Shown piece after piece: positions 13,611 to 27,572 of a DNA stretch of 64,000 nucleotides. Location of the stretch: NCBI GenBank assembly GCA_022711405.1, contig JAKLFC010000010.1, positions 70,349-134,348 on the forward strand. Direction: 5' to 3'. The position numbers and the translations under genes were made by a program. The first letter of the stretch is position 1. Each line of letters opens with the position of its first letter. This DNA is from Bacteroidota bacterium. GTDB taxonomy: Bacteria; Bacteroidota; Bacteroidia; Bacteroidales; JAGONC01. The notes below the pieces were generated by a model. It searched no databases. It saw only the letters and a program-made list of their open reading frames with translations, and had not been told where the DNA came from.

Positions 13611-13859
13611 ATGAAATTAAAGGAAAACATCGCCATCAGTGATTCAGGATACCTCTTCAATCCTTCCACAGGTGAGTCTTTCGTTCTCAATCCCCTGGGT
13701 ATGGAAGTTTTACAGTTCGTGAAAAAGGGAAAATCCTTCGAAGAAATATCAAAGGAGGTCCTGACCCGGTACAGTGTGGATTCCATTACCTTCGAGAAAG
13801 ACTACCAGGATTTCATACACCAGCTCAGGCAGTATCTGTTAATCGGCAGCGATGAATAA
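13611..13859 (+). CDS. PqqD-family small protein (RRE-like peptide/adaptor-binding fold)
   Basis: 82 aa. The pattern ...GYLFNPSTGESFVLNPLGMEVLQFVKKGKSFEEISKEVLTRY... is the typical PqqD-like layout (beta-strands followed by a winged-helix). The stop overlaps the ATP-grasp start. Confidence 0.65.
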   Translation: MKLKENIAISDSGYLFNPSTGESFVLNPLGMEVLQFVKKGKSFEEISKEVLTRYSVDSITFEKDYQDFIHQLRQYLLIGSDE

Positions 13860-14898
13860 GAAAAGGGTAACGGTGGGCATCTCAGGGCTGAACGCCATCG
13901 ACAGCCCCGGGCCCGGGATGGCGGTAGCCATGGGCCTTCACGAAGCCAGATCATTGGATGTAAGGATCATTGGCCTTGCGTATGAATCGCTGGAGCCGAT
14001 GATCTACATGCACGACCTGGTCGACAGGACCTACCAGCTGCCGTATCCATCCTCCGGAAGCGATATGATCCTCTCAAGGCTTGAATACATTCAGGAGATG
14101 GAACACATCGATGTGATCATCCCCAATTTTGATGCGGAACTGTATTCTTTCATGAAGATCGAGCCCCAGCTGAAGAGAATGGGCATCCGCATGTTCCTGC
14201 CTGCTATGGAACAGTACGAGGAGCGGCATAAAGTGAATCTGTCCAAATTCGGTGAAAAATATGATATTCTTGTGCCCCATGGCAAGGCGGTCTTTGAACC
14301 CAAAGAGGTGTTCGATATCAAATCGGAGTTTACCTTTCCGCTGCTGGTAAAGGGTAAATGGTACGATGCCTATATTGCCTACAACATAGAGCAGGTGCTG
14401 ACCTGTTTCAATAAGATCAGTGCCAAATGGGGCCTGCCCGTGATCCTTCAGAAATTCGTACATGGCTCTGAGTACAATGTAACGGGACTTGGTGACGGCG
14501 CCGGTACCACGGTGGCTGCCGTGGCCATGCGCAAGCAATACATCACGGATAAGGGAAAAGCGTGGGCGGGGATCTCCATCGACGATACGTACCTTCTTGA
14601 ACTCACCCGCAAGTTTGTTACTGCAACGAAATGGCGCGGTGCCTTTGAACTGGAGATGATCAAGACCCAGGATAATAAATATTACCTGCTGGAGATCAAT
14701 CCTCGTATACCGGCATGGACATACCTTGCCGTGGGAGTCGGGCAAAACATCCCGGAAGCCCTGGTGAGGCTCGCCCTGGGGTTGAAAGTCCAGCCTTACG
14801 AATCCTATGATGTGGGAAAACTCTTCATCCGGTACTCCAAAGACATGATCGTCGACCGGGAGGAGTTTGAAAAACTCTCGATGACCGGTGAATTGTGA
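13852..14898 (+). CDS. ATP-grasp carboxylate-amine ligase
   Basis: 348 aa with the LLVKGK, ILQKFV.G.EY and ELEMI...YLLEINPR motif order of ATP-grasp enzymes. Confidence 0.8.
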   Translation: MNKKRVTVGISGLNAIDSPGPGMAVAMGLHEARSLDVRIIGLAYESLEPMIYMHDLVDRTYQLPYPSSGSDMILSRLEYIQEMEHIDVIIPNFDAELYSFMKIEPQLKRMGIRMFLPAMEQYEERHKVNLSKFGEKYDILVPHGKAVFEPKEVFDIKSEFTFPLLVKGKWYDAYIAYNIEQVLTCFNKISAKWGLPVILQKFVHGSEYNVTGLGDGAGTTVAAVAMRKQYITDKGKAWAGISIDDTYLLELTRKFVTATKWRGAFELEMIKTQDNKYYLLEINPRIPAWTYLAVGVGQNIPEALVRLALGLKVQPYESYDVGKLFIRYSKDMIVDREEFEKLSMTGEL

Positions 14899-14955
14899 TC
14901 CCACTCAACGTAACTTCAGAAAACAAAAGATAACTATACTGATAAAACTTTCAGC

Positions 14956-16302
14956 ATGGAAAAACAACGATATGAACGACCGATCCTGAAAAAACTGGAA
15001 ATGGGCATGCCCGGTAAATTCGGCGTAGCTGCCAACCTGCCTCCCACTACCCATATTGACGGGATCTCCGTAGACTCGCTGGTGGAAACCTACGGCTCAC
15101 CCGTGTTCATCCTGTCCGAGAAAACCATTCGTTCGGTTTTCAAAAGAGCAAAAAAAGCATTTACAACCCGCTATCCCAAGGTCCAGTTTGCATGGTCCTA
15201 TAAGACCAATTACCTGAATGCAGTGTGCAGGATCTATCATCAGGAGGGTTCCTGGGCTGAGGTCGTTTCAGGATTTGAATACGATAAAGCGATCGCCAAT
15301 GGAGTACAGGGACAGCACATCATTTTCAACGGCCCGGATAAATCGGCGATATACCTGGAAAAGGCCATCCGTAACGATTCCATCCTTCATATTGACCACC
15401 TGGATGAACTGTACACGATCATTGAGCTTACCGAAAAACTGGCGAAAAAGCCGAAAGTGGCCATCCGGGTGAACATGGATACTGGCATACAACCCATGTG
15501 GGACCGCTTTGGATTCAATTATGAAAACGGCCAGGCCTGGGACGCCCTCAACAAGATCATGCATTCAGGAAAACTGGATCTGGTGGGGCTTCACACCCAT
15601 ATCGGGACGTTCATCATGAGCCCGCAGGCCTATGGAGTCGCTGCCCAGAAACTTGCCGATCTTGCCATCGGGATCCGGCAGAAGTACAACCATACGATCA
15701 AATACATCGACATGGGAGGCGGCTTTGCTTCAGCCAATACCCTCAAGGGATTCTATTATCCGGGCAGCGACACCAATCCCACGTTTGATGACTATGCGGA
15801 GGCCATCACATCGGCATTGCTGAACACACAGTTCACACCGGATAATCTTCCCCTGCTGATCCTGGAGACCGGCAGGGCCCTTATCGATGAGGCCGGCTAT
15901 CTTCTTGGAACCGTCATCGCCAATAAAAGACTCTCTACCGGTAAACGGACCACGATTGTCGACATTGGCATCAACCTCCTTTTCACTTCTTTCTGGTACG
16001 AACATAAACTCACCCCCGCACGGCATTATTCACAGTACACGGAAGCAACTACGGTATATGGTCCCCTGTGCATGAATATCGACGTTATCAGGGAAAATGT
16101 CAACCTGCCGTTGCTGAACAAAGGCGACCATTTTGTCATCCATCACGTGGGGGCATACAATATGACCCAGTGGATGCAGTTTATCACCCTGCGGCCCAAG
16201 ATCGTCCTGATCGATCAGGACGGTACTGCCCACGTGATCCGCGAAAATGAAACCATGGACAATGTGATGAACATGGAACACCTTCCCGCCCATCTGAAAT
16301 GA
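14956..16302 (+). CDS. PLP-dependent decarboxylase, Orn/DAP/Arg decarboxylase (alanine-racemase fold) family
   Basis: 448 aa with FAWSYKTN (PLP lysine), HTHIGT, MGGGF and a C-terminal beta-barrel with GAYN. Confidence 0.85.
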   Translation: MEKQRYERPILKKLEMGMPGKFGVAANLPPTTHIDGISVDSLVETYGSPVFILSEKTIRSVFKRAKKAFTTRYPKVQFAWSYKTNYLNAVCRIYHQEGSWAEVVSGFEYDKAIANGVQGQHIIFNGPDKSAIYLEKAIRNDSILHIDHLDELYTIIELTEKLAKKPKVAIRVNMDTGIQPMWDRFGFNYENGQAWDALNKIMHSGKLDLVGLHTHIGTFIMSPQAYGVAAQKLADLAIGIRQKYNHTIKYIDMGGGFASANTLKGFYYPGSDTNPTFDDYAEAITSALLNTQFTPDNLPLLILETGRALIDEAGYLLGTVIANKRLSTGKRTTIVDIGINLLFTSFWYEHKLTPARHYSQYTEATTVYGPLCMNIDVIRENVNLPLLNKGDHFVIHHVGAYNMTQWMQFITLRPKIVLIDQDGTAHVIRENETMDNVMNMEHLPAHLK

Positions 16303-18506
16303 CCCGGATCATGAGCCGTATCAAAGCCCTTTTCACCAGCTTTATACGAGGCATACTCAATAGCTATGCACAGGTCTTCTTTTCTAACCACAGCCTGTTT
16401 GCCGTTTTTCTCATCCTTGTCTCTTTTTTTGATATCTATGCGGGTATTACCGGCCTGATGTCAGTGATCATATCCAATACCGCTGCTTACCTGATCGGCT
16501 TCAACCGGACTTTCATCAGAAGGGGATACTACGGATTCAATAGTCTTTTAGTTGGCCTGGGTCTGGGTATCTTCTATCAGCCCTCGGTCGAACTCTGGCT
16601 GCTTGTTTTCTTTACAAGCCTGCTGACACTTCTGCTCTCTGTCATGCTGGAGGGAGTCATAGGGAAATATTACCTGCCGTATCTCAGTGTCCCGTTCCTG
16701 CTGGGGATATGGATGGTCATGCTTGCTTCGCGCAGGTTTGAGGCACTCGACATAAGCGAACGCGGCATCTATATGTTCAATGACATGTATGCGCTGGGAG
16801 GCCTGAATCTGGTCAAAGTTTACGACTGGTTCACCCGGCTTGCACTGCCCGATTCGCTGGAGGTCTATTTCCGATCCCTGGGTGCCATCTTATTTCAATA
16901 TCATCTATTTGCAGGTATGCTGATCGCTCTCGGACTGATCATTTACTCGCGCATCGCTTTTGTGCTGTCGTTGGCCGGCTATTACCTGGCCTATATGTTC
17001 TTTCACCTGTTTGGAGGAGATTTCACCACCCTCAATTACTCTTATATCGGATTCAATTTTATTCTCACCTCCATCGCCGTCGGTGGATACTTCATTATCC
17101 CATCACGCTACTCTTACCTGTGGGTGGCCCTCCTCACCCCCCTGACCATTATTGTGATCATCAGTGCCGGAACCCTGTTCTCCATTTTTCAGCTTTCCAT
17201 TTATTCATTGCCCTTTAATGTCATCGTTCTCTTGTTCCTGTACATTCTGAGATTCCGGGAGAGAAACCTCGGATCTCCCCAGCTGGTGGTGGTGCAGCAT
17301 TTTTCCCCGGAGCGGAACCTCTATTCACACCTGAATTATTCCGGCCGGTTCAATCCTGCTTTACCCGTGAACCTATCACTGCCCGTTTTCGGAGAATGGA
17401 AGGTGACCCAGGGTCACCGGGGCGAGCATACCCATCAGCATGACTGGCAGCACGCCTGGGACCTCGAAATAGTGGATGAGGAAGGCCATGCATACAGCCG
17501 TTCAGGGAAAGAACCGGAGGATTTTTATGCCTATGGTAAACCCGTTGTCGCCCCTGCTGATGGCTGGGTGGAACAGATCCAGGATGGAATTGACGATAAC
17601 GCGGTCGGCGAGATCAACACGGTGCAGAATTGGGGAAATACGATCGTCATTCGACATACGGACTCCCTTTTTACAAAGCTCAGTCACCTCAGAAAGGGAT
17701 CGTTCAAGGTCAAAGAGGGAGAGCAGATAAAGAAGGGGGCACTGCTTGCCCAATGCGGAAATTCAGGGCGCTCACCGGTACCCCATGTTCATTTCCAGGT
17801 CCAGAATGAGCCGTACATCGGAGCTCCTACCCTGGAATATCCATTAAGCCATATTGTTCATCATGCGGAAGACAGGCAATGGCTGGTTGCCTGGGATGTC
17901 CCTGTCAAAAATGACCTTATCTCCAATATCGACCGTCATAAAGTGCTGGAAAATGCCTTTCATTTTGTTCCCGGCCAGTCGCTCCTGATGAATGTCAGCG
18001 AGCAGGGTTCCCCCATGCGTCAGGAAATGCTGGTGGTCAAAGTGGATTCTTTGAACAATCAGTATATTGAATGTGAAAGGTTTGGCGCCAGGGCTTTTTT
18101 CAGGAATGAGGACAATGTGTTCTATTTTACCGGATATTCCGGATCGAGACGGTCGGTGCTCTATTATTTTTTCCTCGCCCATTTTAAGGTGGTCAAAGGA
18201 TTCTACTGCAACATGTCCATAGAAGACCCAATCCCTGTCGATCTTTTTCATAACCGAGTCCTGTTGTTTTTCCAGGATCTGGTGGCACCTTTCTTTATTT
18301 TTATTAGTTCAATGTACACACTTTCATATACCCGCATACAGGATCAGCTGTCATCCCCTGTCATCACCCTGAATGCTGCATGCGAAGCAAGGACATTAAA
18401 ATCGTCATCCGGTCACATGGATTTCGAGACCCGGATCGATGAAAAGGGGATCAAGGAATTCAGGGTGATCAGAAAAAACCGCGTCATGGAGGTAACATGC
18501 ATCTGA
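16299..18506 (+). CDS. Fusion protein: urea-transporter-like polytopic membrane domain + M23 metallopeptidase domain + C-terminal domain of unknown function
   Basis: 735 aa. The first ~330 aa are about 10 hydrophobic helices with a urea-transporter-like N-terminus (ILNSYAQVFFS). The middle has M23 signatures (HTHQHDWQHAWD ... GNSGRSPVPHVHFQV). The start overlaps the decarboxylase stop (ATGA). Confidence 0.7.
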   Translation: MTRIMSRIKALFTSFIRGILNSYAQVFFSNHSLFAVFLILVSFFDIYAGITGLMSVIISNTAAYLIGFNRTFIRRGYYGFNSLLVGLGLGIFYQPSVELWLLVFFTSLLTLLLSVMLEGVIGKYYLPYLSVPFLLGIWMVMLASRRFEALDISERGIYMFNDMYALGGLNLVKVYDWFTRLALPDSLEVYFRSLGAILFQYHLFAGMLIALGLIIYSRIAFVLSLAGYYLAYMFFHLFGGDFTTLNYSYIGFNFILTSIAVGGYFIIPSRYSYLWVALLTPLTIIVIISAGTLFSIFQLSIYSLPFNVIVLLFLYILRFRERNLGSPQLVVVQHFSPERNLYSHLNYSGRFNPALPVNLSLPVFGEWKVTQGHRGEHTHQHDWQHAWDLEIVDEEGHAYSRSGKEPEDFYAYGKPVVAPADGWVEQIQDGIDDNAVGEINTVQNWGNTIVIRHTDSLFTKLSHLRKGSFKVKEGEQIKKGALLAQCGNSGRSPVPHVHFQVQNEPYIGAPTLEYPLSHIVHHAEDRQWLVAWDVPVKNDLISNIDRHKVLENAFHFVPGQSLLMNVSEQGSPMRQEMLVVKVDSLNNQYIECERFGARAFFRNEDNVFYFTGYSGSRRSVLYYFFLAHFKVVKGFYCNMSIEDPIPVDLFHNRVLLFFQDLVAPFFIFISSMYTLSYTRIQDQLSSPVITLNAACEARTLKSSSGHMDFETRIDEKGIKEFRVIRKNRVMEVTCI

Positions 18507-19843
18507 AGACGTTTATCATCTCCGTACTTGTTTTATCGTCTGTCTGCCTGTATGCGGAGGATCCTCCAGACTTCGTGGAGGTGGACACGACCACCTATGG
18601 GTATTACGCCAGAAAGCAATGGAATGAACTGGTCGAAGCAGGGAACAGGTATCTGAAGTATGGATTTGATTACTATTACCTCAGGATGCGGATCGGAGTG
18701 GCTCATTATGAGCTGCAGAACTATATCAGGGCAGCTGACCATTTCACACGGGCGTTGAAATTCAATGAAGGAGATACTGCTGTACTTGCTCTGTTATATT
18801 ACTCCTATCTTCAGCTCAACAGGACAGATGCTGCTGACAGGGTACTGGGTATGCTGCCTGTGGAAGAAGCCCGGAAATTCCGGTCGGGAAAGTTCAGCTT
18901 CCTGGAAATGGTCTACCTGGAGACCGGTCCACTGATCTCTTCGGGAACGTCGGACAACAGCCGGATGAACCTGGATGGAACCGATGATGTCTATGGAGAG
19001 ATCGATCACCTGATCAGAAATTCATATTACAATGGATTGGGACTTGTGACAAGGCTTGCTCCCTCCGTGAGACTGCAGCTAAGTTATATGGATCTCTTTC
19101 AGGGCAGGACTGCCCAGGTGATGACAGGCGATTCCCTGATCTTTGACAAGGATCACTCCCTTCAGCAGCACCAGTTCTACATCAGCCCATCTTTCCGCTT
19201 TGGAAAGGGATTTTCGGTGATACCTGCCTTTCATTACCTTGACATTACCTACGACCAGCTGCATGTTCAGTACAGTCAGGAAACAAAGAATTATTCGTTT
19301 GATATGGACACCGTCCATCAGAGGGATTACCTGGCGTCCCTCTGCCTGAACAAGGACCTGTCACTGGTGAGCCTGACGCTGACAGGGACGTACGCAAGGC
19401 TCAACATGTTCGATCATTACCAGGCGGAAATTGCCCTCACGTATTACCCCAGGGGAAACCTGGATTTTTATTCCCAAACCATCGGACGGTATATTCATGG
19501 AAGGGAAGACCACTTCCATTTTGCCGAAACTGCCGGGCTGAAGATCAGCAAGGGATTGTGGATGGAAGTATCGGCCACGTTCGGGGAAGCGGCCGAGTTT
19601 TTTGAAAAAAACGGGTACATTGTGTATAACCTGCCTGAGGACATGTTGTTGAAATGGGGTTTCCAGCCCTATTACCAGATCTCGGATCGGTTGCTTGTCA
19701 GTGTGAAATATGAGAACCTGTATCGGGAAAGCAGGTTTCTGCAATATGATTATGAAGAGAATTCAGGGCAGTACCTGCAGGTATATAAACCATTCACGTA
19801 TCATCAACATCTCATCATCGGAATTTTAAAATTGAACCTATGA
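18497..19843 (+). CDS. Secreted envelope protein with N-terminal TPR-like region (possible outer-membrane barrel)
   Basis: 448 aa with a signal peptide. It has TPR-like helices near the N-terminus and an alternating aromatic/polar pattern in the C-terminal two-thirds. It overlaps both neighbours. Confidence 0.45.
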   Translation: MHLKTFIISVLVLSSVCLYAEDPPDFVEVDTTTYGYYARKQWNELVEAGNRYLKYGFDYYYLRMRIGVAHYELQNYIRAADHFTRALKFNEGDTAVLALLYYSYLQLNRTDAADRVLGMLPVEEARKFRSGKFSFLEMVYLETGPLISSGTSDNSRMNLDGTDDVYGEIDHLIRNSYYNGLGLVTRLAPSVRLQLSYMDLFQGRTAQVMTGDSLIFDKDHSLQQHQFYISPSFRFGKGFSVIPAFHYLDITYDQLHVQYSQETKNYSFDMDTVHQRDYLASLCLNKDLSLVSLTLTGTYARLNMFDHYQAEIALTYYPRGNLDFYSQTIGRYIHGREDHFHFAETAGLKISKGLWMEVSATFGEAAEFFEKNGYIVYNLPEDMLLKWGFQPYYQISDRLLVSVKYENLYRESRFLQYDYEENSGQYLQVYKPFTYHQHLIIGILKLNL

Positions 19844-20463
19844 GCAATTTGCGTAAATTAACGGGACTGGTCCTGCTGGTGATCATGCTCCCGGCCATGA
19901 ACAGGGCACAGGATTACCCTGCGATGCAGCAGGCCTTTGGTACGAGCTACAGCTATGAAAACAAGGGAGAGTATGCCAAAGCCATTGAAGAACTGAAAAA
20001 GATCTATCTTGAAGATTCCTACGAAATCAACATCCGGCTGGGCTGGTTGTCGTATTTAGCCGGGGCGTTCACCGAGTCGTCGGCCTACTACGAAAGGGCC
20101 ATTGCACTGATGCCCATGTCGATCGAAGCCCGGATGGGATTTGCCCTTCCCTCATCGGCCATGGGCAACTGGACGCTCCTCATTAAACGATACGAAGAGA
20201 TCCTTTCCATTGACCCGAACCATTCCATAACGAACTACCGGCTGGCCTCCATCTATTACAACCGGAAGGAGTATCAGAAAGCCTTTATCTATCTTGAGAA
20301 AATTGCCAACCATTATCCGTATGATTATGATATTGCAATCCTGTTTGCATGGACCAATTATCAGCTCGGAAAACTGCGGGAAGCTAAGGTGTTATTCAAC
20401 AAGGCCCTTTTAATCAGACCACTGGATGGTTCTGCGCTGGAGGGACTGAAGCTGATCCAGTAA
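19840..20463 (+). CDS. Secreted TPR-repeat protein
   Basis: 207 aa with a signal peptide and repeated A..Y..A. TPR patterns. Confidence 0.65.
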   Translation: MSNLRKLTGLVLLVIMLPAMNRAQDYPAMQQAFGTSYSYENKGEYAKAIEELKKIYLEDSYEINIRLGWLSYLAGAFTESSAYYERAIALMPMSIEARMGFALPSSAMGNWTLLIKRYEEILSIDPNHSITNYRLASIYYNRKEYQKAFIYLEKIANHYPYDYDIAILFAWTNYQLGKLREAKVLFNKALLIRPLDGSALEGLKLIQ

Positions 20464-20475
20464 TCCGGTGGTATG

Positions 20476-21171
20476 TCATCCTGTAATGCTGATGCTGATC
20501 AGTTTTTCCTTATTGAGGATACTGAAATCAAGCCCTTCCACAGCCAGAATGCCGCTATCCTTGAATTCTTTGATGATCCTTATAGCACTTTCTTTGGTCA
20601 TGGCTGACAGGTCAGCAATATCCTGCCTGGAAAGCTCAGTGTGGAACGAATCGGTGCCATAGACATGGTTGGAAAGGTAGAGCAGCGTTTCTGCCAGCCT
20701 TCCCGGCATCTGCTTCATGGTCAGGGTGACCATACGGTCAAAATTTTCGATCATCTGTTTATTGATCATTCTCAGCAATTCGAAGGCAAACTGGTTGTTC
20801 CGGATGATCGTTTTATTGAACGCTTCAATATCGATCAGGCATGCATAACAATCTGTGATGGCTCTGACCGAGTAATGCAGTTTATTGTCGACAAACAGGC
20901 CAGGTCCGGACGCTATTTCAGTGGGTTTCAGGATACGCAGAATCAGCTTGCGTTTACGCAGGCCCTCGATGTAAATGTTCGCCGATCCTTTGGTAAGGCA
21001 GACAATATGTGTCAGAGGGGCTCCCTGTTTCAGAATGATCTCACCTGCGTTAAAGCTTACCTCGTGCCGGTTCGCATCCATCATGCATAGTTCATCATCA
21101 GTGAGATGATTGAACAGAGGTATCTTCCAGTGACAGGAACTGCATGATAAACGATTGATAAATTCAGGCAT
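20476..21171 (-). CDS. Crp/Fnr-family transcription regulator with N-terminal Cys cluster (FNR-like)
   Basis: 231 aa with N-terminal CSSCHWK...C, a cNMP-binding-like barrel, and a C-terminal HTH (RQDIADLSAMTKESAIRIIKEF). Confidence 0.8.
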   Translation of the reverse strand: MPEFINRLSCSSCHWKIPLFNHLTDDELCMMDANRHEVSFNAGEIILKQGAPLTHIVCLTKGSANIYIEGLRKRKLILRILKPTEIASGPGLFVDNKLHYSVRAITDCYACLIDIEAFNKTIIRNNQFAFELLRMINKQMIENFDRMVTLTMKQMPGRLAETLLYLSNHVYGTDSFHTELSRQDIADLSAMTKESAIRIIKEFKDSGILAVEGLDFSILNKEKLISISITG

Positions 21172-21233
21172 ATCGGATGATCAACTTTCTTTTACAAAGA
21201 TTATTAAATCTTCTGTAATAAATCAATAGTTTG

Positions 21234-21247
21234 TTGATATATATCAT
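21234..21247. promoter_or_regulatory. FNR/CRP-type box TTGAT-ATAT-ATCAT in the divergent promoter region
   Basis: Read directly. It matches 9 of 10 half-site positions of TTGAT-N4-ATCAA. It lies in the AT-rich 196-bp gap between the fnr-like gene and the cytochrome operon. Related ATATATCA(A/T)T words recur at about 21261 and 21283. Confidence 0.3.
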
Positions 21248-21367
21248 TATAATTATATAGATATATCAATAAATCCTTATTATATATCATTCATAACAGA
21301 TTTATATGTAAATATATTTATAGTAATATTGGTCATTATTTCAAACTTACCTTAAAATTTCTTCATT

Positions 21368-22426
21368 ATGAAAAGAAAGGGATTCTTGACATTTTTAATG
21401 TCTGCCTTTGTGGTCGCTGTTTTTGTGATGTCGGGATGTACCAAAGAAGGTCCTCCGGGCCCTGCGGGTCCCAAAGGGGAAGACGGGATCAACGGTAACG
21501 ATGGGACAGTAGGTTGCATCCAGTGCCATAATTCGGATCAGACATTAGCAGCACTCACTATGCAGTGGGAGTACTCGGTTCACGCTACAGGAGGAAATTT
21601 TGAAAGGAATACTACTTCCTGTGCGCCGTGTCATACGAGCCAGGGCTTTCTGGAACGAATGGCCGCAGGAACCCAGGTCACAGCCGAAGACATTGCCAAT
21701 CCCAATCCCCCCAATTGCTACACCTGTCATAATATTCACAAGACCTACACGGTCGATGACTGGGCTCTTACGTACGCAGATCCGATAACCCTCTGGTATC
21801 CTGCCGGAGCAGAGGCAGTGGATTATGGAAAGGGGAATATTTGCGGCAACTGCCATCAGGCAAGGATCGTCAACCCGGTACCGGTTCCCGGAAGCGGTGT
21901 TACCTACAAGTTGACGAACAGCAGGTATGGCACACACCATTCTCCTGTGGCTAACATGCTGGCAGGATTGGGTGGTTATGAAAAGGAAGACTACGATAAC
22001 TCCCCTCACGGATCACTGGTAGAGGACGGATGCGTCACCTGTCATATGGCTGATGCGTACGGCTGGCAGGCAGGAGGTCATACAACAAAAATAGAATATG
22101 ACTATCACGGTTCCATCGAAGTCAATTTTGCAGGATGTACCACCTGTCACAGCGATGAGGATAAGCTTGCAACGGAACTGGAAGAAATCCAGACGGAAAT
22201 CGCAGGCATGATCGACAACCTACGCACGATCCTCAAGGACAGGGGGTATCTGGGCGATGATGACCTTTTCCTGGCCTCCAGTGGCTCGCCCCTGAACCTG
22301 ACTGCAGATGAACTGGGTGCCTGTCTTAATTTCCAGATGGTCCTCGAAGATAAAAGCAATGGGGTTCATAATTATCAATATTCCAAGAAACTGCTTGAGG
22401 AATCCATTTCCGATTTAAGCAAATAA
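21368..22426 (+). CDS. Hexahaem c-type cytochrome lipoprotein with collagen-like Gly-X-Y linker
   Basis: 352 aa with a lipobox (MSGC) followed by GPPGPAGPKGEDGINGNDG. Six CxxCH motifs: CIQCH, CAPCH, CYTCH, CGNCH, CVTCH, CTTCH. Confidence 0.85.
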   Translation: MKRKGFLTFLMSAFVVAVFVMSGCTKEGPPGPAGPKGEDGINGNDGTVGCIQCHNSDQTLAALTMQWEYSVHATGGNFERNTTSCAPCHTSQGFLERMAAGTQVTAEDIANPNPPNCYTCHNIHKTYTVDDWALTYADPITLWYPAGAEAVDYGKGNICGNCHQARIVNPVPVPGSGVTYKLTNSRYGTHHSPVANMLAGLGGYEKEDYDNSPHGSLVEDGCVTCHMADAYGWQAGGHTTKIEYDYHGSIEVNFAGCTTCHSDEDKLATELEEIQTEIAGMIDNLRTILKDRGYLGDDDLFLASSGSPLNLTADELGACLNFQMVLEDKSNGVHNYQYSKKLLEESISDLSK

Positions 22427-22510
22427 AATTAGAAAAGAAGGAATACACATGGCTTCATCAAGCGATGCCTTCCTTTTACTATGATAGCCTTCTTTCAAAA
22501 TACCCATGCG

Positions 22511-22891
22511 ATGAAAAAAATTCTGATTGTCCCGGTGCTGATAGGACTTGGCTTGCTGCTTCTCCTTACTTCCTGTGAATATGAGTTCATTGATTCCGAA
22601 CCTGAATCCTCCGACACTGCGAACGTTTCTTTCAAAACGGATATCCTGCCCATCTTCAACACCAACGACAACTGCACATCCTGTCATAAAACAGGATTTA
22701 CTCCTCCTGATCTGACGGAGTCCAATGCGTACAACAGCATCATTTCCACCGGTCTGGTTGATCTTGCAACACCAAAGAACAGCAAGATCTACAAAGTACC
22801 CGGTTCATCCGATCACGCCTGGAAGTCCTATACACAATCACAAAGTTCCAAAGTGTTGAACTGGATCAACCAGGGTGCTCCGGACAATTAG
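22511..22891 (+). CDS. Small monohaem c-type cytochrome-domain lipoprotein
   Basis: Start chosen at MKKILIV (residue 11 of ORF 22481..22891). It has a lipobox (LLTSC) and DILPIFNTNDNCTSCH, typical of the ILPI...CxxCH cytochrome domain. Confidence 0.7.
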   Translation: MKKILIVPVLIGLGLLLLLTSCEYEFIDSEPESSDTANVSFKTDILPIFNTNDNCTSCHKTGFTPPDLTESNAYNSIISTGLVDLATPKNSKIYKVPGSSDHAWKSYTQSQSSKVLNWINQGAPDN

Positions 22892-22919
22892 CCAATTAAC
22901 GTTTAATCCTGTACAGATC

Positions 22920-23795
22920 ATGAAAAAGCTGGGCATCTATCTGATCATATCTCTTCTGATCGTCACTCTGGTCAAAGGCCAGGACTCGGTACCGGTCCAA
23001 AAGGACAAACCCATCCGGTCACCTTTTGAAAGCGGAATGCTGATTGACAATGAGACCATGGTGATCCCGACGGCAAAAACGCTTGAACTGGTCATCCAGC
23101 ATCGCTTTGGAGAAATGAGCAACGGCATGGAGGATTTTTACGGCATCTGGGCTCCCTCTAACATCCGGCTGGGTTTCAATTACAGCATACTGAATACCCT
23201 GATGGTGGGCGTTGGCACTTCCAAAGATTACCGTCTCCAGGATTTCCGTATGAAATACAATCTGCTTCAACAAACCCGTTCCGATAAAATTCCCCTGAGT
23301 ATCACCCTGTATGGCAATTTTGCCATCGATGCCCGAAATCAGGATGTATTCGAAGGGTACTCGAGTCCTTATGAGTTGATTGATCGTTTCTCCTATTTTG
23401 GTGAACTAATCCTCACCCGGAAATTTTCAGATATCTTTACGTTACAGTTATCCGGAAGTTTCTCCCATATCAACAAAGTGCCCGAAGGAATTGAACATGA
23501 TAAAATAGGTCTTTCCTTTGCAGGAAGGTTTAAAATTTCTCCGCAGTCTTCCATCCTGTTCCAGTATGACATTCCGCTTGACTGTGAAAAAATGAAAGAA
23601 AACGCAGTGCTGATGAATGTTAAGCCCAATTTTGGAGTTGCCTGGGAAATTGCCACGTCCTCTCATGCCTTCCAGATAACCCTCAGTTCAGCAAAACTTC
23701 TGAGCCGTCAGTATGATATGATCTATAATGAATATGACTGGACAGAAGGAGATATCATGCTGGGATTTAATATGACACGCCTGTGGAGCTTCTAA
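22920..23795 (+). CDS. Putative outer-membrane beta-barrel protein (DUF5777-like)
   Basis: Start chosen at MKKLGIYLI, with a signal peptide. About 290 aa with alternating-residue strands and a terminal aromatic (...MTRLWSF). Confidence 0.55.
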   Translation: MKKLGIYLIISLLIVTLVKGQDSVPVQKDKPIRSPFESGMLIDNETMVIPTAKTLELVIQHRFGEMSNGMEDFYGIWAPSNIRLGFNYSILNTLMVGVGTSKDYRLQDFRMKYNLLQQTRSDKIPLSITLYGNFAIDARNQDVFEGYSSPYELIDRFSYFGELILTRKFSDIFTLQLSGSFSHINKVPEGIEHDKIGLSFAGRFKISPQSSILFQYDIPLDCEKMKENAVLMNVKPNFGVAWEIATSSHAFQITLSSAKLLSRQYDMIYNEYDWTEGDIMLGFNMTRLWSF

Positions 23796-23848
23796 TGGGG
23801 CACTTTATTTACTAACAGAATGAATTTTTATTTTTAAATGATACGACT

Positions 23849-24274
23849 ATGAAAAACAAAAATCTTTTAACAGTGGCAGTTGTATTCCTGGGGGCACTCC
23901 TGCTGGTTGCATTCACGATTCCTCAGGATCAGAAGAAGGGTGGTCCCTGGAACATACCTGACAAGTACAAAACCATGAAGAATCCCTATACAGGGAATGC
24001 TGATTTGACCAATGTCGGTAAAATGCTCTATGCCAAACATTGCAAAAGCTGTCATGGCAACGTGGGACTTGGAGATGGCCCCAAGGCTGCGACCCTTGCC
24101 ACAAACTGCGGTGATTTATCTTCAGCCACCTGGCAGAAAGCCAACAGTGACGGTGCCCTTTATTACATGTCCATTATCGGCAGGGATGAAATGCCCAATT
24201 TCGAAAGCAAGATCCCTGAAGAAGAAGACCGCTGGGCAGTCGTTAACTTTCTCAGGACACTGACGGCCAAGTAG
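23849..24274 (+). CDS. Class I monohaem cytochrome c
   Basis: 141 aa with a signal peptide, CKSCHG, and a distal Met region (GRDEMPNF). Confidence 0.85.
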   Translation: MKNKNLLTVAVVFLGALLLVAFTIPQDQKKGGPWNIPDKYKTMKNPYTGNADLTNVGKMLYAKHCKSCHGNVGLGDGPKAATLATNCGDLSSATWQKANSDGALYYMSIIGRDEMPNFESKIPEEEDRWAVVNFLRTLTAK

Positions 24275-24313
24275 CAACGGTTAATTGACCGATTATGGTG
24301 CTTTTTCTGGCTC

Positions 24314-25414
24314 TTGCCGGATCAGGCACCTTTCCGTTTATTGTCAGAAAGCTTAAAAAGAGGAATCATAGTGAAAAGCCATTTGATTACTGGCCTGATC
24401 CTTATCATCAGTCCTGGCATTTTTGCACAGGAGCCGGGTAGCAATCCCGCCCCTAAATTTGTGTCCGAAAATATAGAATGTCTTCAGTGTCACGGCAGAA
24501 AAACGTATTTTTACCACAATGAATGGACGGATATGATGGTGAAGGAAAGGATGAATCCTTATTACATCATTGACTCGGCATTGTTCTATGCATCTAATCA
24601 CCGGAATTTTAAATGCACGGACTGTCATTCGTCTGAATATCAATCATTTCCTCATTCGGGTTTGCTGAGAATGGAGCTCGGCTATACCTGTATGGATTGT
24701 CACGGTGGAGATGAGAATTTTGCAGATTTTCAATTTGAAAGGATCGAGGAGGAATTTATCCACAGCGTCCATTCGACACGACACAGCGAAGATTTCACCT
24801 GCTGGATGTGCCATAATCCTCATACGTACCGCATCAGCGCCAGAAGGGACCTCATCCCTGATGTAGTGGCCTATGATAATGAGATTTGTCTGAGCTGCCA
24901 TGCCAACATCAATAAATTCCAGCTTTTAACGGATAAAATAAATCCCGGTATCCTGGAAAAGCATGAATGGTTACCCAATCAGAAACTGCACTTTTTAAGT
25001 GTGAGATGCATTGAATGTCATGCTGAACAGGAAAACGACATGCTGGTGGCCCATAACATAAAATCAAAGGAAGAAGCCGTCAGACTCTGCGCAAACTGCC
25101 ACTCACAGAACTCACTGCTGTTCACTTCCCTCTATAAGTACCAGCTTAAGGAGAGCCGCCGTGAAAAAGGATTCCTTGCTGCAATGGCTTTACAGTGGAG
25201 AAAAAATAACCTGATTACAGCAATGGATTCAATAGCAGAAGTCAATGATAGGAATGAATCCACCGATGGATCCGTTGCATCTGTCGTCCCGCCTTTTATC
25301 ATTGGTTCCGGAAGCAATCCCCTGATGAACCTGATCAGCCTGATCCTGTTCTTTTCGGGGCTCCTGGCAGTTATGGTCCATGTCATTTTACGTATCATCT
25401 ATAAAACAAGCTGA
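24314..25414 (+). CDS. Heptahaem c-type cytochrome with C-terminal membrane anchor
   Basis: Seven CxxCH motifs (CLQCH, CTDCH, CMDCH, CWMCH, CLSCH, CIECH, CANCH) and a hydrophobic C-terminal helix (LISLILFFSGLLAVMVHVIL). Confidence 0.8.
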   Translation: MPDQAPFRLLSESLKRGIIVKSHLITGLILIISPGIFAQEPGSNPAPKFVSENIECLQCHGRKTYFYHNEWTDMMVKERMNPYYIIDSALFYASNHRNFKCTDCHSSEYQSFPHSGLLRMELGYTCMDCHGGDENFADFQFERIEEEFIHSVHSTRHSEDFTCWMCHNPHTYRISARRDLIPDVVAYDNEICLSCHANINKFQLLTDKINPGILEKHEWLPNQKLHFLSVRCIECHAEQENDMLVAHNIKSKEEAVRLCANCHSQNSLLFTSLYKYQLKESRREKGFLAAMALQWRKNNLITAMDSIAEVNDRNESTDGSVASVVPPFIIGSGSNPLMNLISLILFFSGLLAVMVHVILRIIYKTS

Positions 25415-26036
25415 TCGGATGTCGGAGTACTATTATTTCTACCCCAAATGGCTCAGGTTATGGCATGTTTTGAACGCCCTTTTATGTCTGGCGTTGATTG
25501 TCACAGGGGTCAGCATGCAATATACCACGCATGTCAACTCGCTCATCCGTTTTGACATCGCCGTCAATATCCATAATTATTGTGGTGTTGCCCTCACGGC
25601 AACCTATTTTCTTTTCTTTGGCGGAAATCTGCTCACCAGCAATGGCAGGCATTACCTGCTGAAAAGAAAAGGGATATTCAGGGATATCATCAAGCAGTTC
25701 CATTATTATTCTCTCGGGATCTTTAAAAAACGACAACCCCCCTTCCCCTTGAACGAAAACCGGAAATTCAATCCTTTACAGCAGTTCAGCTATGTAATCA
25801 TCATGTACATCTGTATGCCTTTCATCTTTATTACCGGTTGGGCTTTACTGTTTCCCGAGGTCATTCTGGAGAAGTTTCTGGGTTTTGATGGGCTACAGAT
25901 GACTGATTTTTTTCATATCGTACTGGGCTTCATCATCACCCTTTTCCTGATCATACATATTTATTTCAGTACGATCGGGATCCGGAAATCCAATAATTTC
26001 ATCAGCATTATAACGGGCTGGCACCGCTCCCACTAA
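25380..26036 (+). CDS. Membrane b-type cytochrome (Ni/Fe-hydrogenase/FdnI-type cytochrome b family)
   Basis: 218 aa, or starting at MSEYYY around 25419. It has four hydrophobic helices, an N-terminal PKWLRLWHVLNA signature and conserved His residues in the helices. Confidence 0.7.
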   Translation: MSFYVSSIKQADRMSEYYYFYPKWLRLWHVLNALLCLALIVTGVSMQYTTHVNSLIRFDIAVNIHNYCGVALTATYFLFFGGNLLTSNGRHYLLKRKGIFRDIIKQFHYYSLGIFKKRQPPFPLNENRKFNPLQQFSYVIIMYICMPFIFITGWALLFPEVILEKFLGFDGLQMTDFFHIVLGFIITLFLIIHIYFSTIGIRKSNNFISIITGWHRSH

Positions 26037-26045
26037 GGCATGACC

Positions 26046-27572
26046 TTAATAGAGTTCCCGGTGACACTCCGAACAAAGCTTCTCTTTCCATGCCTGCCTG
26101 TTGTCGTTCAGGTGATGAAACTCGAGGGATTCACCATTGACAGAGGTTTGCATGTTATCCGGTGTCCCCTGTGAGAGGATGTGGTGGCAATTGTTGCAAT
26201 CTCTTGAAATAACGGCGCCATCACTGCTTGTATGCCGGTTATTGTGGCAGCGGAAACACCCGTCTGATTCCACATGACTGAGATGGTTGACATAAGCTTT
26301 CCAGGTCACTTTCATTTCAGGAAAGATATTCTTCCTGAATTCTCCCTGTATGCCGTTGATAGCCTGATCTACCATCTCCCCCTTACCTTCCGTGATCTCA
26401 GGGTACATCATTTCATAATAGGCCCTGACTTCACTGTCGAGGAGCAGCATGGCACTATCCTCGGTAGAGTACTCCTTGTGGTACAGCAGATCCATTGCAA
26501 GGAACTTGATGTCGGGCAATTCCCTGGGGATCTTGCCGGAAGTAAGGGCATCATTGATGAACGTGATCGGCGTGTTGTAATGATGAGAGGGCCTGTTATG
26601 GCAATCGATGCAATCCATGGTGCGAATTTCCAGTGTATCCAGCTGTCCTGTCTGCAATGGATTTTCTGAATCCTCATAAATAATTTTCTTTCCCGTTTTT
26701 TTATTGGTATACCTGACCCATGGGATGATTTCCCGATCCAGGGAAGTGGAAACATATTCAATGGTAACCTCCGGATTGATGTGCCAGTGGATACCTTCCA
26801 GAAGACCGAGCGAACTGTGTTCGGGGCCGATCTTCAGCATCAGGTTCATCGTCCATTCTGTATTGCTCCCATCGGCCAGGTAATGAACCTTTTTGACCAA
26901 CTGGTGGGCATAAAATTTCTCTGGCCAATGACATTCTTCGCAGGTTTCCCTGGCCGGACGTAAATTTTTGATGGGCGTCGGGATAGGTCGCGGATAAATA
27001 TTCAATAGGGTAGCATACACCTGGTATAATCCTGATAATTTCGATCGTACATACCAGTTCGCCCCTGTGCCTACATGACAGTCCACACATGCAACCCGCG
27101 CATGGGCGGAGTTTTGATAGGCCACATACTCTGGCTTCATCACCCTGTGACATAATGTGCCGCAGAATTTTACAGATTCAGTATAATGAAAAGCTTCATA
27201 ACTGCCCATTGCAGACAGGAGAAGAAAAAGAGTGGTGCCAATGGCAAACAGGGAAAATCCATTCCTGGTCCGTTGTTCGTTGAAATCAAAAATAGGCCAT
27301 CTTCTCACCCTGGATACCTCCCCCCGCTTATCCTTCCTGTGTTTACGGATCATGCCGATGGGAATGATGATCAGGCCAAGGACCAGAAATACAGGCAGTA
27401 CAATATAGATGACCAGACCCAGGTATGAACCGCTTTCCCTGTATATCAGGGAAATGATGAACAGAAAGATGATCATGAACAGACTGATCAATGCGATCGT
27501 GGCTCCAATGAGTGATGTCCAGTTGTAAAAGGATTTTGGGAGTTTCATTGTACCCTGTATTAATCCTTTCAA
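26046..27572 (-). CDS. Inner-membrane heptahaem cytochrome, NapC/NirT-related (ImcH-like architecture)
   Basis: 508 aa with three N-terminal TM helices. Haem motifs are CGTLCH (CX3CH), CVDCH, CEECH, CIDCH, CFRCH, CNNCH and CSECH. Confidence 0.7.
   Translation of the reverse strand: MKGLIQGTMKLPKSFYNWTSLIGATIALISLFMIIFLFIISLIYRESGSYLGLVIYIVLPVFLVLGLIIIPIGMIRKHRKDKRGEVSRVRRWPIFDFNEQRTRNGFSLFAIGTTLFLLLSAMGSYEAFHYTESVKFCGTLCHRVMKPEYVAYQNSAHARVACVDCHVGTGANWYVRSKLSGLYQVYATLLNIYPRPIPTPIKNLRPARETCEECHWPEKFYAHQLVKKVHYLADGSNTEWTMNLMLKIGPEHSSLGLLEGIHWHINPEVTIEYVSTSLDREIIPWVRYTNKKTGKKIIYEDSENPLQTGQLDTLEIRTMDCIDCHNRPSHHYNTPITFINDALTSGKIPRELPDIKFLAMDLLYHKEYSTEDSAMLLLDSEVRAYYEMMYPEITEGKGEMVDQAINGIQGEFRKNIFPEMKVTWKAYVNHLSHVESDGCFRCHNNRHTSSDGAVISRDCNNCHHILSQGTPDNMQTSVNGESLEFHHLNDNRQAWKEKLCSECHRELY

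Follow-up and report, generated by a model that had tools for sequence, protein, structure and literature searches.

The window analysed here, a stretch of 64,000 nucleotides from a Bacteroidales bacterium (contig JAKLFC010000010.1), carries at positions 20476-27572 eight genes, one for a Crp/FNR regulator and seven for proteins that are secreted or membrane-bound, among them a stalked six-haem lipoprotein, a small one-haem lipoprotein, an outer-membrane barrel of the DUF5777 family and two candidate quinol-oxidase modules of Geobacter type. There is, in our estimate, an even chance that this cluster is an anaerobically induced branch leading menaquinol electrons outward to an acceptor located at the outer membrane or beyond it. 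By analogy, such a conduit would be porin-cytochrome-like in function but not of Mtr/Pcc build, and its closest logic would be that of Cyc2 split into two genes.

The regulator gene lies on the minus strand and is followed by a 196-bp AT-rich spacer and six plus-strand genes with intergenic gaps of 4-96 bp. The last gene, encoding an ImcH-like protein, is convergent with the cytochrome b gene, tail to tail, and not divergently oriented as had been described in the first-pass annotation of this DNA. The seven-part inventory given there is borne out, all eight genes being in place, and its number of haem c motifs is exact: 22 across the seven proteins (6+1+1+7+7), with CGTLCH of the ImcH-like protein included. 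The CSSCH of the regulator mimics a haem c motif, but the protein is cytoplasmic and the site is therefore not counted.

Scanned with a profile of the barrel, a set with a single genome for each GTDB species yielded at least 523 confirmed loci; gene maps were drawn for the best 80 of these, and component counts use the 60 loci with adequate flanks. Nearly all of the best 80 belong to Bacteroidales (Lentimicrobiaceae, Prolixibacteraceae, Carboxylicivirga, Mariniphaga, Maribellus, Saccharicrinis), and the cluster is present in the cultured Carboxylicivirga mesophila JCM 18290 (L083), where it occupies about 15.6-21.2 kb of NZ_JAGUCN010000006.1. The small haem lipoprotein is encoded directly 5′ of the barrel in 80/80 loci (60/60 of the well-flanked ones). 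Around this pair the cluster is conserved as a unit, with the six-haem lipoprotein in 56/60 loci, the class I cytochrome c in 42/60, the pair of seven-haem cytochrome and cytochrome b in 56/60 and the Crp/FNR regulator in 49/60. The ImcH-like gene is found in 30/60 loci, in 27 of them on the same strand as the barrel, and in several (e.g. L020, L054, L067) it directly substitutes for the bc pair after the barrel or the cytochrome c; at least one inner-membrane quinol-oxidase module is present in 59/60.

Within a few kb of the cluster, 12 loci (L015, L028, L032, L035, L043, L045, L059, L068, L070, L075, L084, L086) additionally encode a protein of about 930 residues that combines 19 CxxCH motifs with a multi-helix domain resembling cytochrome b at its C-terminus, an architecture that corresponds to the CbcL/MtoC-type Bacteroidetes entry in the table of Zhong and Shi. 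Since ImcH, CbcBA-type and CbcL-like genes are all found at these loci, all three quinol-oxidase classes of Geobacter extracellular respiration are genetically coupled to the outer-membrane unit. The flanks of related loci also repeatedly encode a histidine kinase, a four-haem cytochrome and the ResB/CcsA proteins of haem attachment; a recurrent molybdoenzyme or NrfA-type reductase is not found there. The first-pass annotation had named three observations that would speak against its proposal, namely consistent linkage to a soluble-substrate reductase, a product not predicted to be a barrel and a cluster not conserved as a unit; instead, no such reductase recurs, a barrel is predicted and the unit is conserved. 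A complete cluster of Bacteroidales type is also deposited in a metagenome-assembled genome labelled 'Clostridia bacterium' (L055, SABY01000023.1), a taxon label that is probably a binning error rather than a sign of transfer into a monoderm.

Upstream of the first cytochrome gene lies a box, TTGATATATATCAT, with one mismatch to TTGAT-N4-ATCAA. Within the window alone this match is at chance level (3 matches in 64 kb, 4.8 expected). A box with at most one mismatch, perfect in 23 cases, is, however, found upstream of the first gene, at about -100 to -180, in 61/76 related loci; in 200 shuffles of the upstream regions it occurs on average in 3.8 loci and never in more than 10. This conservation makes FNR-type anaerobic control well supported at the operator level. 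Consensus scans for promoters and terminators gave background level only and were left unused.

At the sensor level such control is suggested by the cysteines of the regulator. Among the NCBIfam models it matches CRP, FnrL, FixK and Fnr best, in each case far below cut-off. Among 69 homologues Cys10 is conserved in at least 80% and Cys13 and Cys111 in at least 95%, with a spacing resembling that of Cys20, Cys23 and Cys122 in Escherichia coli FNR; of the CSSCH sequence the CxxC portion alone is conserved, along with Cys111. Compared with the four-cysteine [4Fe-4S] set of FNR, the third N-terminal cysteine is not conserved in the regulator family, and Cys58 is kept in at least 50%. This pattern suggests an FNR-like metal or iron-sulfur site with an unusual ligand set. 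Of the FNR linkage put forward in the first-pass annotation, the regulator domains and the operator in related loci thus lend support, while the box of the window by itself does not. In the proposed mechanism, anoxia would cause the FNR-type regulator to bind TTGAT-N4-ATCAA through a presumed Fe-S sensor and switch the operon on.

The outer-membrane pair and the six-haem lipoprotein

Residues 36-289 of the barrel protein align with the whole of the PF19089 model (positions 1-247 of 247) and score 235 bits, the cut-off being 23, and the AlphaFold2 (AF2) model depicts 12 strands (pLDDT 87, pTM 0.80) with long loops on one side and short turns on the other. All strands are amphipathic, conserved polar residues face the lumen, and two features are invariant, Gln21 right after the signal peptide and W-x-F at the C-terminus. 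With these hallmarks the earlier prediction of an outer-membrane barrel is supported. The segment preceding strand 1 (residues 31-53) is conserved and confidently placed and, by analogy to FapF and COG4313, is a probable N-terminal plug; in Foldseek, FapF is the best match, followed by the COG4313 channel, OmpG, NanC and KdgM. Three histidines, His61, His183 and His249 (motifs HRFG, HxN and GGHxFQ), show no or almost no variation among highly divergent DUF5777 proteins, and many charged lumen residues are invariant alongside them, which hints at a bound metal or cofactor.

In the small lipoprotein the haem motif is universal (CX2CH in 61/80 loci, CX4CH in 19/80), and a conserved lipobox is followed by C-[EQ]-Y-[DE]-[FWY]-[IV] and a Pro/acidic-rich linker. 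Its relatives yield sub-threshold matches only, to Cytochrome_CBB3, PccH and PSCyt1. The small lipoprotein is the obligate partner of the barrel. Together, the one-haem lipoprotein and the plugged 12-stranded barrel would hand electrons on across the outer membrane.

Mtr and Pcc barrels have 20-26 strands, and a barrel of 12 is too small to enclose a multihaem cytochrome as MtrB does. With MtrCAB and the Geobacter Pcc systems (OmaB-OmbB-OmcB, ExtABCD) the window shares the parts list of quinol oxidase, carrier, barrel and lipid-anchored multihaem cytochrome, but the cluster contains no MtrA/OmaB-like gene for a multihaem insert and the barrel shows no detectable MtrB/PioB homology (Pfam MtrB_PioB, Foldseek). 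A sheath of Mtr/Pcc type is ruled out by the 12 strands, the FapF/COG4313/NanC/KdgM folds and the missing MtrA-like partner; of the porin-cytochrome-style conduit proposed at first, the function is retained and the construction is not. Since no multihaem cytochrome can be sheathed by a barrel of 12 strands with a probable plug, a closer parallel in logic is the cytochrome-porin Cyc2, which likewise combines one c-type haem with a barrel too small for a multihaem wire. The Cyc2 barrel has about 16 strands. In contrast to Cyc2, the window has two genes (lipoprotein and barrel) in a chain with reducer-type quinol oxidases, and the likeness noted here is one of design.

A true fusion exists in the wider DUF5777 family, which comprises 1798 clusters at 50% identity. 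In the protein P0372 (L087, 5457-7947) a class I cytochrome c, homologous to the one encoded at 23849..24274 in the window, is fused to the N-terminus of the barrel with no signal peptide in between. The N-terminus of outer-membrane barrels is usually periplasmic, and it is at this end that the class I domain is attached. No close relatives of P0372 were found in the scanned metagenomes of the Joint Genome Institute (JGI). Its gene is flanked by those for a Reeler-domain protein with CxxCH and a type IX secretion tail and for a small haem lipoprotein.

The same family of small lipoproteins also adjoins distant DUF5777 barrels. Thirty diverse DUF5777 proteins gave an alignment too divergent for scanning, and a narrower one was used for the distant clade, in which metagenome loci (L091-L170, e.g. 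L089, 5005-6951) encode the small haem lipoprotein, a YceI-like protein and the barrel; YceI is a polyisoprenoid-binding fold. Among the 51 distant loci that have 1.3 kb or more of upstream sequence, 42-44 show this three-gene module, and homologues of the multihaem cytochromes, cytochrome b, ImcH and Crp are absent within 3.5 kb in 80/80 distant loci. As the pair is widespread with YceI and without multihaem partners, the cytochrome-barrel pair is an old general unit, and the multihaem and quinol-oxidase genes are, judged from this distribution, a later addition in the window's clade.

These observations can be extended to a bolder proposal, which we hold only tentatively and with the balance leaning against it: that the one-haem lipoprotein and the plugged DUF5777 barrel form a new, widespread Bacteroidota class of split cytochrome-porins moving electrons across the outer membrane, which anaerobic Bacteroidales have connected both to quinol oxidases of Geobacter type and to an OcwA-like surface cytochrome that has a collagen-like stalk and is possibly trimeric. 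The barrel would then be bridged by the small cytochrome, a bound cofactor or the three invariant histidines, and the unit would be ancient (about 1800 clusters), occurring also with YceI in aerobic relatives.

Alternatively, the barrel may not be an electron path at all but a device for assembly, anchoring or display of lipoprotein cytochromes, with electrons moving only among soluble and lipid-anchored cytochromes. Variants of this explanation are linker threading as in RcsF-OmpA/C/F, Slam- or FapF-like export and, together with YceI in other clades, the handling of a lipophilic cofactor. It accounts for the best fold match, FapF being a plugged polypeptide secretion barrel, and for the further resemblance to COG4313, a channel for hydrophobic molecules. 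It is also in keeping with the long conserved extended linkers that directly follow the lipidated cysteine in both lipoproteins (Pro/acidic or Gly-X-Y), with the conserved C-E-Y-D-F-I motif at the N-terminus of the small one and with the pairing of small haem lipoprotein and YceI with barrels in distant clades. However, a folded holo-cytochrome cannot traverse 12 strands, the cytochrome c-barrel fusion suggests redox coupling rather than mere transport, and the three family-invariant histidines and charged lumen residues point to a bound ligand or metal and not to a passive anchor. We consider this explanation quite improbable.

The six-haem lipoprotein carries a lipobox cysteine (Cys24) that is invariant in 52 homologues and is followed in nearly all by T-K-E-G. 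The collagen-like linker noticed in the first-pass annotation is real: 6-11 Gly-X-Y triplets are present in 52/52 homologues, with glycine invariant at every third position, and the run leads directly into the first haem motif. In a profile search of the PDB the best match is OcwA (6i5b; residues 378-496, E 2.6e-12), followed by NrfA (E 6e-7). The AF2 model (pLDDT 80; helices 264-291, 313-328 and 336-351) likewise retrieves OcwA first in Foldseek (E 3.5e-5, template-modelling score 0.42-0.46), and then octahaem nitrite reductases (ONR), OmhA (6qvm), which is an S-layer cytochrome, and NrfA. By profile as well as by AF2/Foldseek, the protein has the NrfA-type C-terminal haem pair and three-helix bundle. 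In the profile alignment its haems 1 and 2 coincide with haems 2-3 of NrfA and its haems 5 and 6 with haems 4-5, the N-terminal part being weak, whereas the segment of the catalytic CXXCK haem 1 of NrfA has no counterpart and is replaced by the lipobox and Gly-X-Y stalk.

OcwA is a cell-surface terminal reductase of Thermincola for Fe(III) and electrodes and possesses an NrfA-like haem core. The OcwA of T. potens (6I5B) and the window protein have in common CXXCH at all sites, no CXXCK, the C-terminal haem pair and the three-helix bundle; the latter differs in having six haems and not nine, in being a lipoprotein with a collagen-like stalk and in its diderm host. Residues 47-130 match the MtrC/MtrF domain II/IV of Pfam (PF22113) above threshold (47.8 bits). 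Membership in the MtrC/OmcA decahaem family, with its two pentahaem and two beta-barrel domains, was considered and rejected, as six haems, one PF22113 domain and an NrfA/OcwA fold are found. Non-motif histidines are invariant at positions 72, 124, 190, 214, 238 and 334, which on sequence grounds would be enough for bis-His ligation of most or all haems. An invariant His190-His191 pair, 31 residues before the fifth haem motif, recalls the His-His motifs over the two open-site haems of OcwA, although the OcwA alignments stop short of this region; one haem may therefore bind substrate. The protein is assigned from these likenesses to the NrfA/ONR/OcwA superfamily and may itself be a terminal reductase. 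The earlier statement that no terminal reductase subunit is present consequently holds for linked enzymes of molybdenum or NrfA type and may not hold for this protein. In the proposed mechanism the stalked lipoprotein would be the terminal reductase for an extracellular or outer-membrane-proximal acceptor, for which Fe(III), Mn(IV), humics, electrodes and partner cells are candidates.

A possible position on the cell surface is suggested in part by the residues after the lipidated cysteine. The Bacteroidota surface signal is C-X-K-(D/E)2-X, compared with C-T-K-E-G here, with one acidic residue; in a published test of the Bacteroidota export signal, lysine plus one acidic residue was insufficient. 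The small lipoprotein of the window (C-E-Y-E-F-I-D) is acidic and lacks the lysine. The lipid-anchored, surface-type cytochrome of the first-pass annotation is accordingly supported in its lipid anchor, the lipobox being invariant, and in part only with respect to the surface signal.

The same protein is at the centre of an explanation that we regard as unlikely, the periplasmic reduction of a soluble small molecule. The six-haem protein would then face the periplasm, anchored in the outer membrane by its inner leaflet, with ImcH and CbcBA as NrfH-like quinol dehydrogenases and the barrel as a substrate or product channel, a role that its conserved polar and charged lumen would suit. Membership in the superfamily of NrfA and octahaem nitrite reductases, automatic annotation of homologues as 'nitrite reductase cytochrome c552 subunit', the relationship of ImcH to NapC/NirT/NrfH and the incomplete export signal are compatible with such a role. 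In addition, OcwA turns over nitrite and hydroxylamine in vitro, with open-site haems under His-His, and His190-His191 is invariant here. Nevertheless, its turnover of nitrite is very slow (kcat 1 per minute), the six invariant non-motif histidines of the window protein suffice for bis-His ligation of most or all haems, and an NrfA-type nitrite reductase with a CXXCK haem is ruled out, since both CXXCK and the NrfA haem 1 segment are missing. Strains of Labilibaculum, related Marinilabiliales with cytochromes annotated as 'NrfHA', reduce Fe(III) and Mn(IV) while they ferment but leave nitrite unreduced. Reduction of a soluble substrate also leaves the obligate lipoprotein-barrel pairing, the cytochrome-barrel fusion and the long conserved stalk unexplained.

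Inner-membrane modules and the class I cytochrome c

The ImcH-like protein possesses three hydrophobic helices before residue 120, a CGTLCH site beside helix 3 and six CX2CH motifs. For comparison, the helices of ImcH from Geobacter sulfurreducens (GSU3259) are located at 13-35, 45-67 and 100-122, and members of the family have about 495-519 residues. The motif spacing is 24/49/110/118/20/41, as against 24/49/106/117/20/38 in GSU3259 and 24/49/110/117/20/41 in Draconibacterium. Among 36 homologues, six CxxCH are present in 32 and CX3CH in 35. Residues Glu124, His134, Lys170, Gln176 and Tyr185 correspond to Glu127, His137, Lys173, Gln179 and Tyr188 of GSU3259 at a constant offset of -3, and the first four are at least 95% conserved in the 36 homologues. 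Matches to the NapC/NirT N-terminal region and to the NrfH profile are also obtained. The best 120 of at least 7999 matches in a homologue search are all 59-99% identical and come from metagenomes and metagenome-assembled genomes.

Agreeing with published motif positions and residues at every point compared, the 500-residue protein is assigned by sequence to the ImcH family; the helices, motif spacing and quinol-site residues bear out the architecture, including CGTLCH, that had been proposed at first. It shares with GSU3259 a length of 500 residues, the three helices, CX3CH, the six CX2CH, the quinol-site residues and the NapC/NirT/NrfH-like core. It differs in that its gene is linked to an outer-membrane cytochrome-barrel operon and that no Ppc trihaem partners are seen.

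The second module consists of the seven-haem cytochrome, with seven CxxCH in 69/74 homologues and a C-terminal helix, LISLILFFSGLLAVMVHVILRII, bearing a histidine conserved in at least 95%, and of the cytochrome b, whose gene begins 4 bp after it. The latter has four hydrophobic helices with conserved histidines and matches Ni_hydr_CYTB (PF01292) with 87 bits and PhsC (thiosulfate reductase cytochrome b) with 159 bits, below the cut-off of 204. A search of the PDB gave no match for the cytochrome b subunit and weak, generic cytochrome matches only for the seven-haem subunit.

By its match to the published description the pair is judged to be of CbcA/CbcB (CbcBA) type, a bc-type quinol oxidase used by G. 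sulfurreducens for low-potential acceptors (GSU0593/0594, Cbc5); seven c-type haems with a C-terminal His helix, a four-helix dihaem b subunit and the order c then b are shared. In the window an FNR-type box takes the place of sigma-54/BccR and the operon includes outer-membrane components; the likeness is one of architecture and of a literature statement. Homologues of cbcBA had been noted earlier in Prolixibacter, Marinilabiliales and Labilibaculum (CbcBA paper). The first-pass annotation had taken the pair for a split CbcL, and was right as to a quinol-oxidase pair but not as to its type. With CbcL, MtrH and MtoC it shares the general plan, in which a multihaem c domain in the periplasm is coupled to a b-type quinol site with two haems; a split CbcL is ruled out, since the window has seven haems and four helices in two genes, whereas CbcL fuses nine haems to a six-helix b domain. 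According to Joshi et al., the b domains of CbcB and CbcL lack sequence homology. Both alternative quinol oxidases, of the ImcH family and of CbcA/CbcB type, would feed electrons into the periplasm, as suggested by their Geobacter counterparts.

From there, the class I cytochrome c would ferry electrons to the outer membrane. Its earlier assignment stands, Cytochrome_CBB3 and Cytochrom_C both matching above cut-off, and its CKSCH motif and Met115 are at least 95% conserved, which indicates His/Met ligation. Class I cytochromes ligated in this manner usually have a high potential.

This carrier also bears on the direction of flow. In the reverse direction, which appears distinctly improbable to us, a Cyc2-like cytochrome and barrel would oxidise Fe(II), Fe(0), a cathode or reduced humics, and the electrons would pass inward by way of the high-potential class I cytochrome, ending at a terminal oxidase or reductase or being driven uphill, via ImcH/Cbc, to quinone. 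The pairing of a one-haem cytochrome with a barrel, fused in P0372, is the design of Cyc2, and a conserved His/Met class I cytochrome is typical of Fe(II)-oxidation chains. The small-cytochrome-barrel module is, moreover, widespread outside anaerobic Bacteroidales with no quinol oxidases nearby, and relatives of the small lipoprotein weakly match PccH, a cytochrome that in Geobacter is associated with taking up electrons from electrodes. Proteins of CbcL/MtoC type are published from Fe(II) oxidisers as well. On the other hand, ImcH homologues have so far been found in Fe(III) reducers and not in oxidisers, the six-haem protein resembles outward-facing reductases, and FNR-type anaerobic control in a fermentative Bacteroidales host offers no obvious high-potential sink. 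The 12 strands are, furthermore, fewer than predicted for Cyc2, the comparison being by design alone.

Gene coordinates and flanking genes

The starts of the seven-haem, cytochrome b and ImcH-like genes given in the table were revised from gene callers and homologue alignments.

Table 1. Features of the cluster at 20476-27572, with positions numbered from the first nucleotide of the window
Feature	Position	Strand	Motifs and matches
Crp/FNR-family regulator, 231 aa	20476..21171	-	cNMP_binding + HTH_Crp_2 domains
FNR/CRP-type box TTGATATATATCAT, ~134 bp 5′ of first cytochrome gene	21234..21247		
Six-haem lipoprotein with collagen-like Gly-X-Y stalk, OcwA-like candidate terminal reductase	21368..22426	+	6 CxxCH
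Small one-haem lipoprotein, divergent class-I-like cytochrome c	22511..22891	+	CTSCH
DUF5777 outer-membrane barrel, 291 aa, 12 predicted strands	22920..23795	+	PF19089, 235 bits
Class I one-haem cytochrome c, presumed periplasmic carrier	23849..24274	+	Cytochrome_CBB3, Cytochrom_C above cut-off
CbcA-like seven-haem cytochrome, C-terminal membrane helix	24371..25414 (listed open reading frame from 24314)	+	7 CxxCH
CbcB-like four-helix dihaem cytochrome b	25419..26036 (listed open reading frame from 25380)	+	PF01292, 87 bits
ImcH-family seven-haem inner-membrane protein, 500 aa	26046..27548 (listed open reading frame to 27572, 508 aa)	-	CGTLCH + 6 CxxCH

Identical DNA is present in a JGI metagenome, on a contig of 139 kb that also has Bacteroidota markers in the vicinity, for instance type IX secretion tails. 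Directly upstream of the cluster (13611-20463), an overlapping run of plus-strand genes forms an apparently separate operon. Its products are a PqqD-like peptide chaperone, an ATP-grasp protein (PF15632), a decarboxylase of Orn/DAP type, a 735-residue fusion of a urea-transporter-like domain with an M23 peptidase, a 448-residue TPR protein whose long C-terminal region has no assignment and a 207-residue TPR protein with a weak TPR_Slam match; peptide modification or export is possibly its function. The TPR genes were considered as members of the system and ruled out, being present in 1/60 related loci.

Direction of electron flow and implications

Outward flow is favoured because all three quinol-oxidase classes of Geobacter type are coupled to the outer-membrane unit, the putative terminal protein is OcwA-like, the operator is of FNR type and related Marinilabiliales with 'NrfHA'-annotated cytochromes reduce metals but not nitrite. 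Several observations weigh against this assignment. A high-potential His/Met carrier would be ill-suited to low-potential iron oxides and would also suit inward flow. The haem domains at the two mouths of the barrel would be too distant for direct tunnelling unless one is inserted into the lumen or a cofactor forms a bridge, and the plugged 12-stranded barrel, as modelled, gives no evident electron path. The surface-export signal is only partly matched by both lipoproteins. Since the module is found without respiratory partners, its basic role need not be electron export. Finally, proteins of the OcwA family reduce nitrite and hydroxylamine in vitro, and His190-His191 recalls the distal-pocket His-His of OcwA. 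The gene set and its conservation, the family assignments by architecture and residues, the operator and the fold class of the barrel are shown by the data, whereas the acceptor, the location of the lipoproteins, the passage of electrons at the barrel and the direction itself are inferred.

Homologues of ImcH and CbcBA in Bacteroidetes are already known, an ImcH homologue of Draconibacterium sediminis having been listed in 2018, and a Lentimicrobium genome has been reported to contain another, 'giant' porin-cytochrome cluster of a different kind. Literature searches retrieved no paper describing this operon, no paper on DUF5777/PF19089 and nothing relevant on multihaem lipoproteins in Bacteroidetes; the outer-membrane part of the proposed conduit is undescribed, with no counterpart in the systems compared above.

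Bacteroidales families such as Lentimicrobiaceae, Prolixibacteraceae and Marinilabiliaceae abound in anaerobic digesters, in sediments and in bioelectrochemical systems and are generally regarded as fermenters. For the unexplained reduction of Fe(III) and Mn(IV) by some of their relatives the operon is a concrete and conserved candidate pathway, and since cultured Carboxylicivirga strains carry the cluster, the question is directly testable. The operon furthermore supplies a first context for DUF5777. A mode of crossing the outer membrane distinct from the Mtr/Pcc sheath matters for spotting electroactive organisms in metagenomes, as porin-cytochrome searches built on Mtr- or Geobacter-type porins would be expected to miss this unit. 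If the lipoprotein and barrel do constitute a split cytochrome-porin, the 'fermentative' Bacteroidales of digesters and sediments would have a genuine extracellular respiration.

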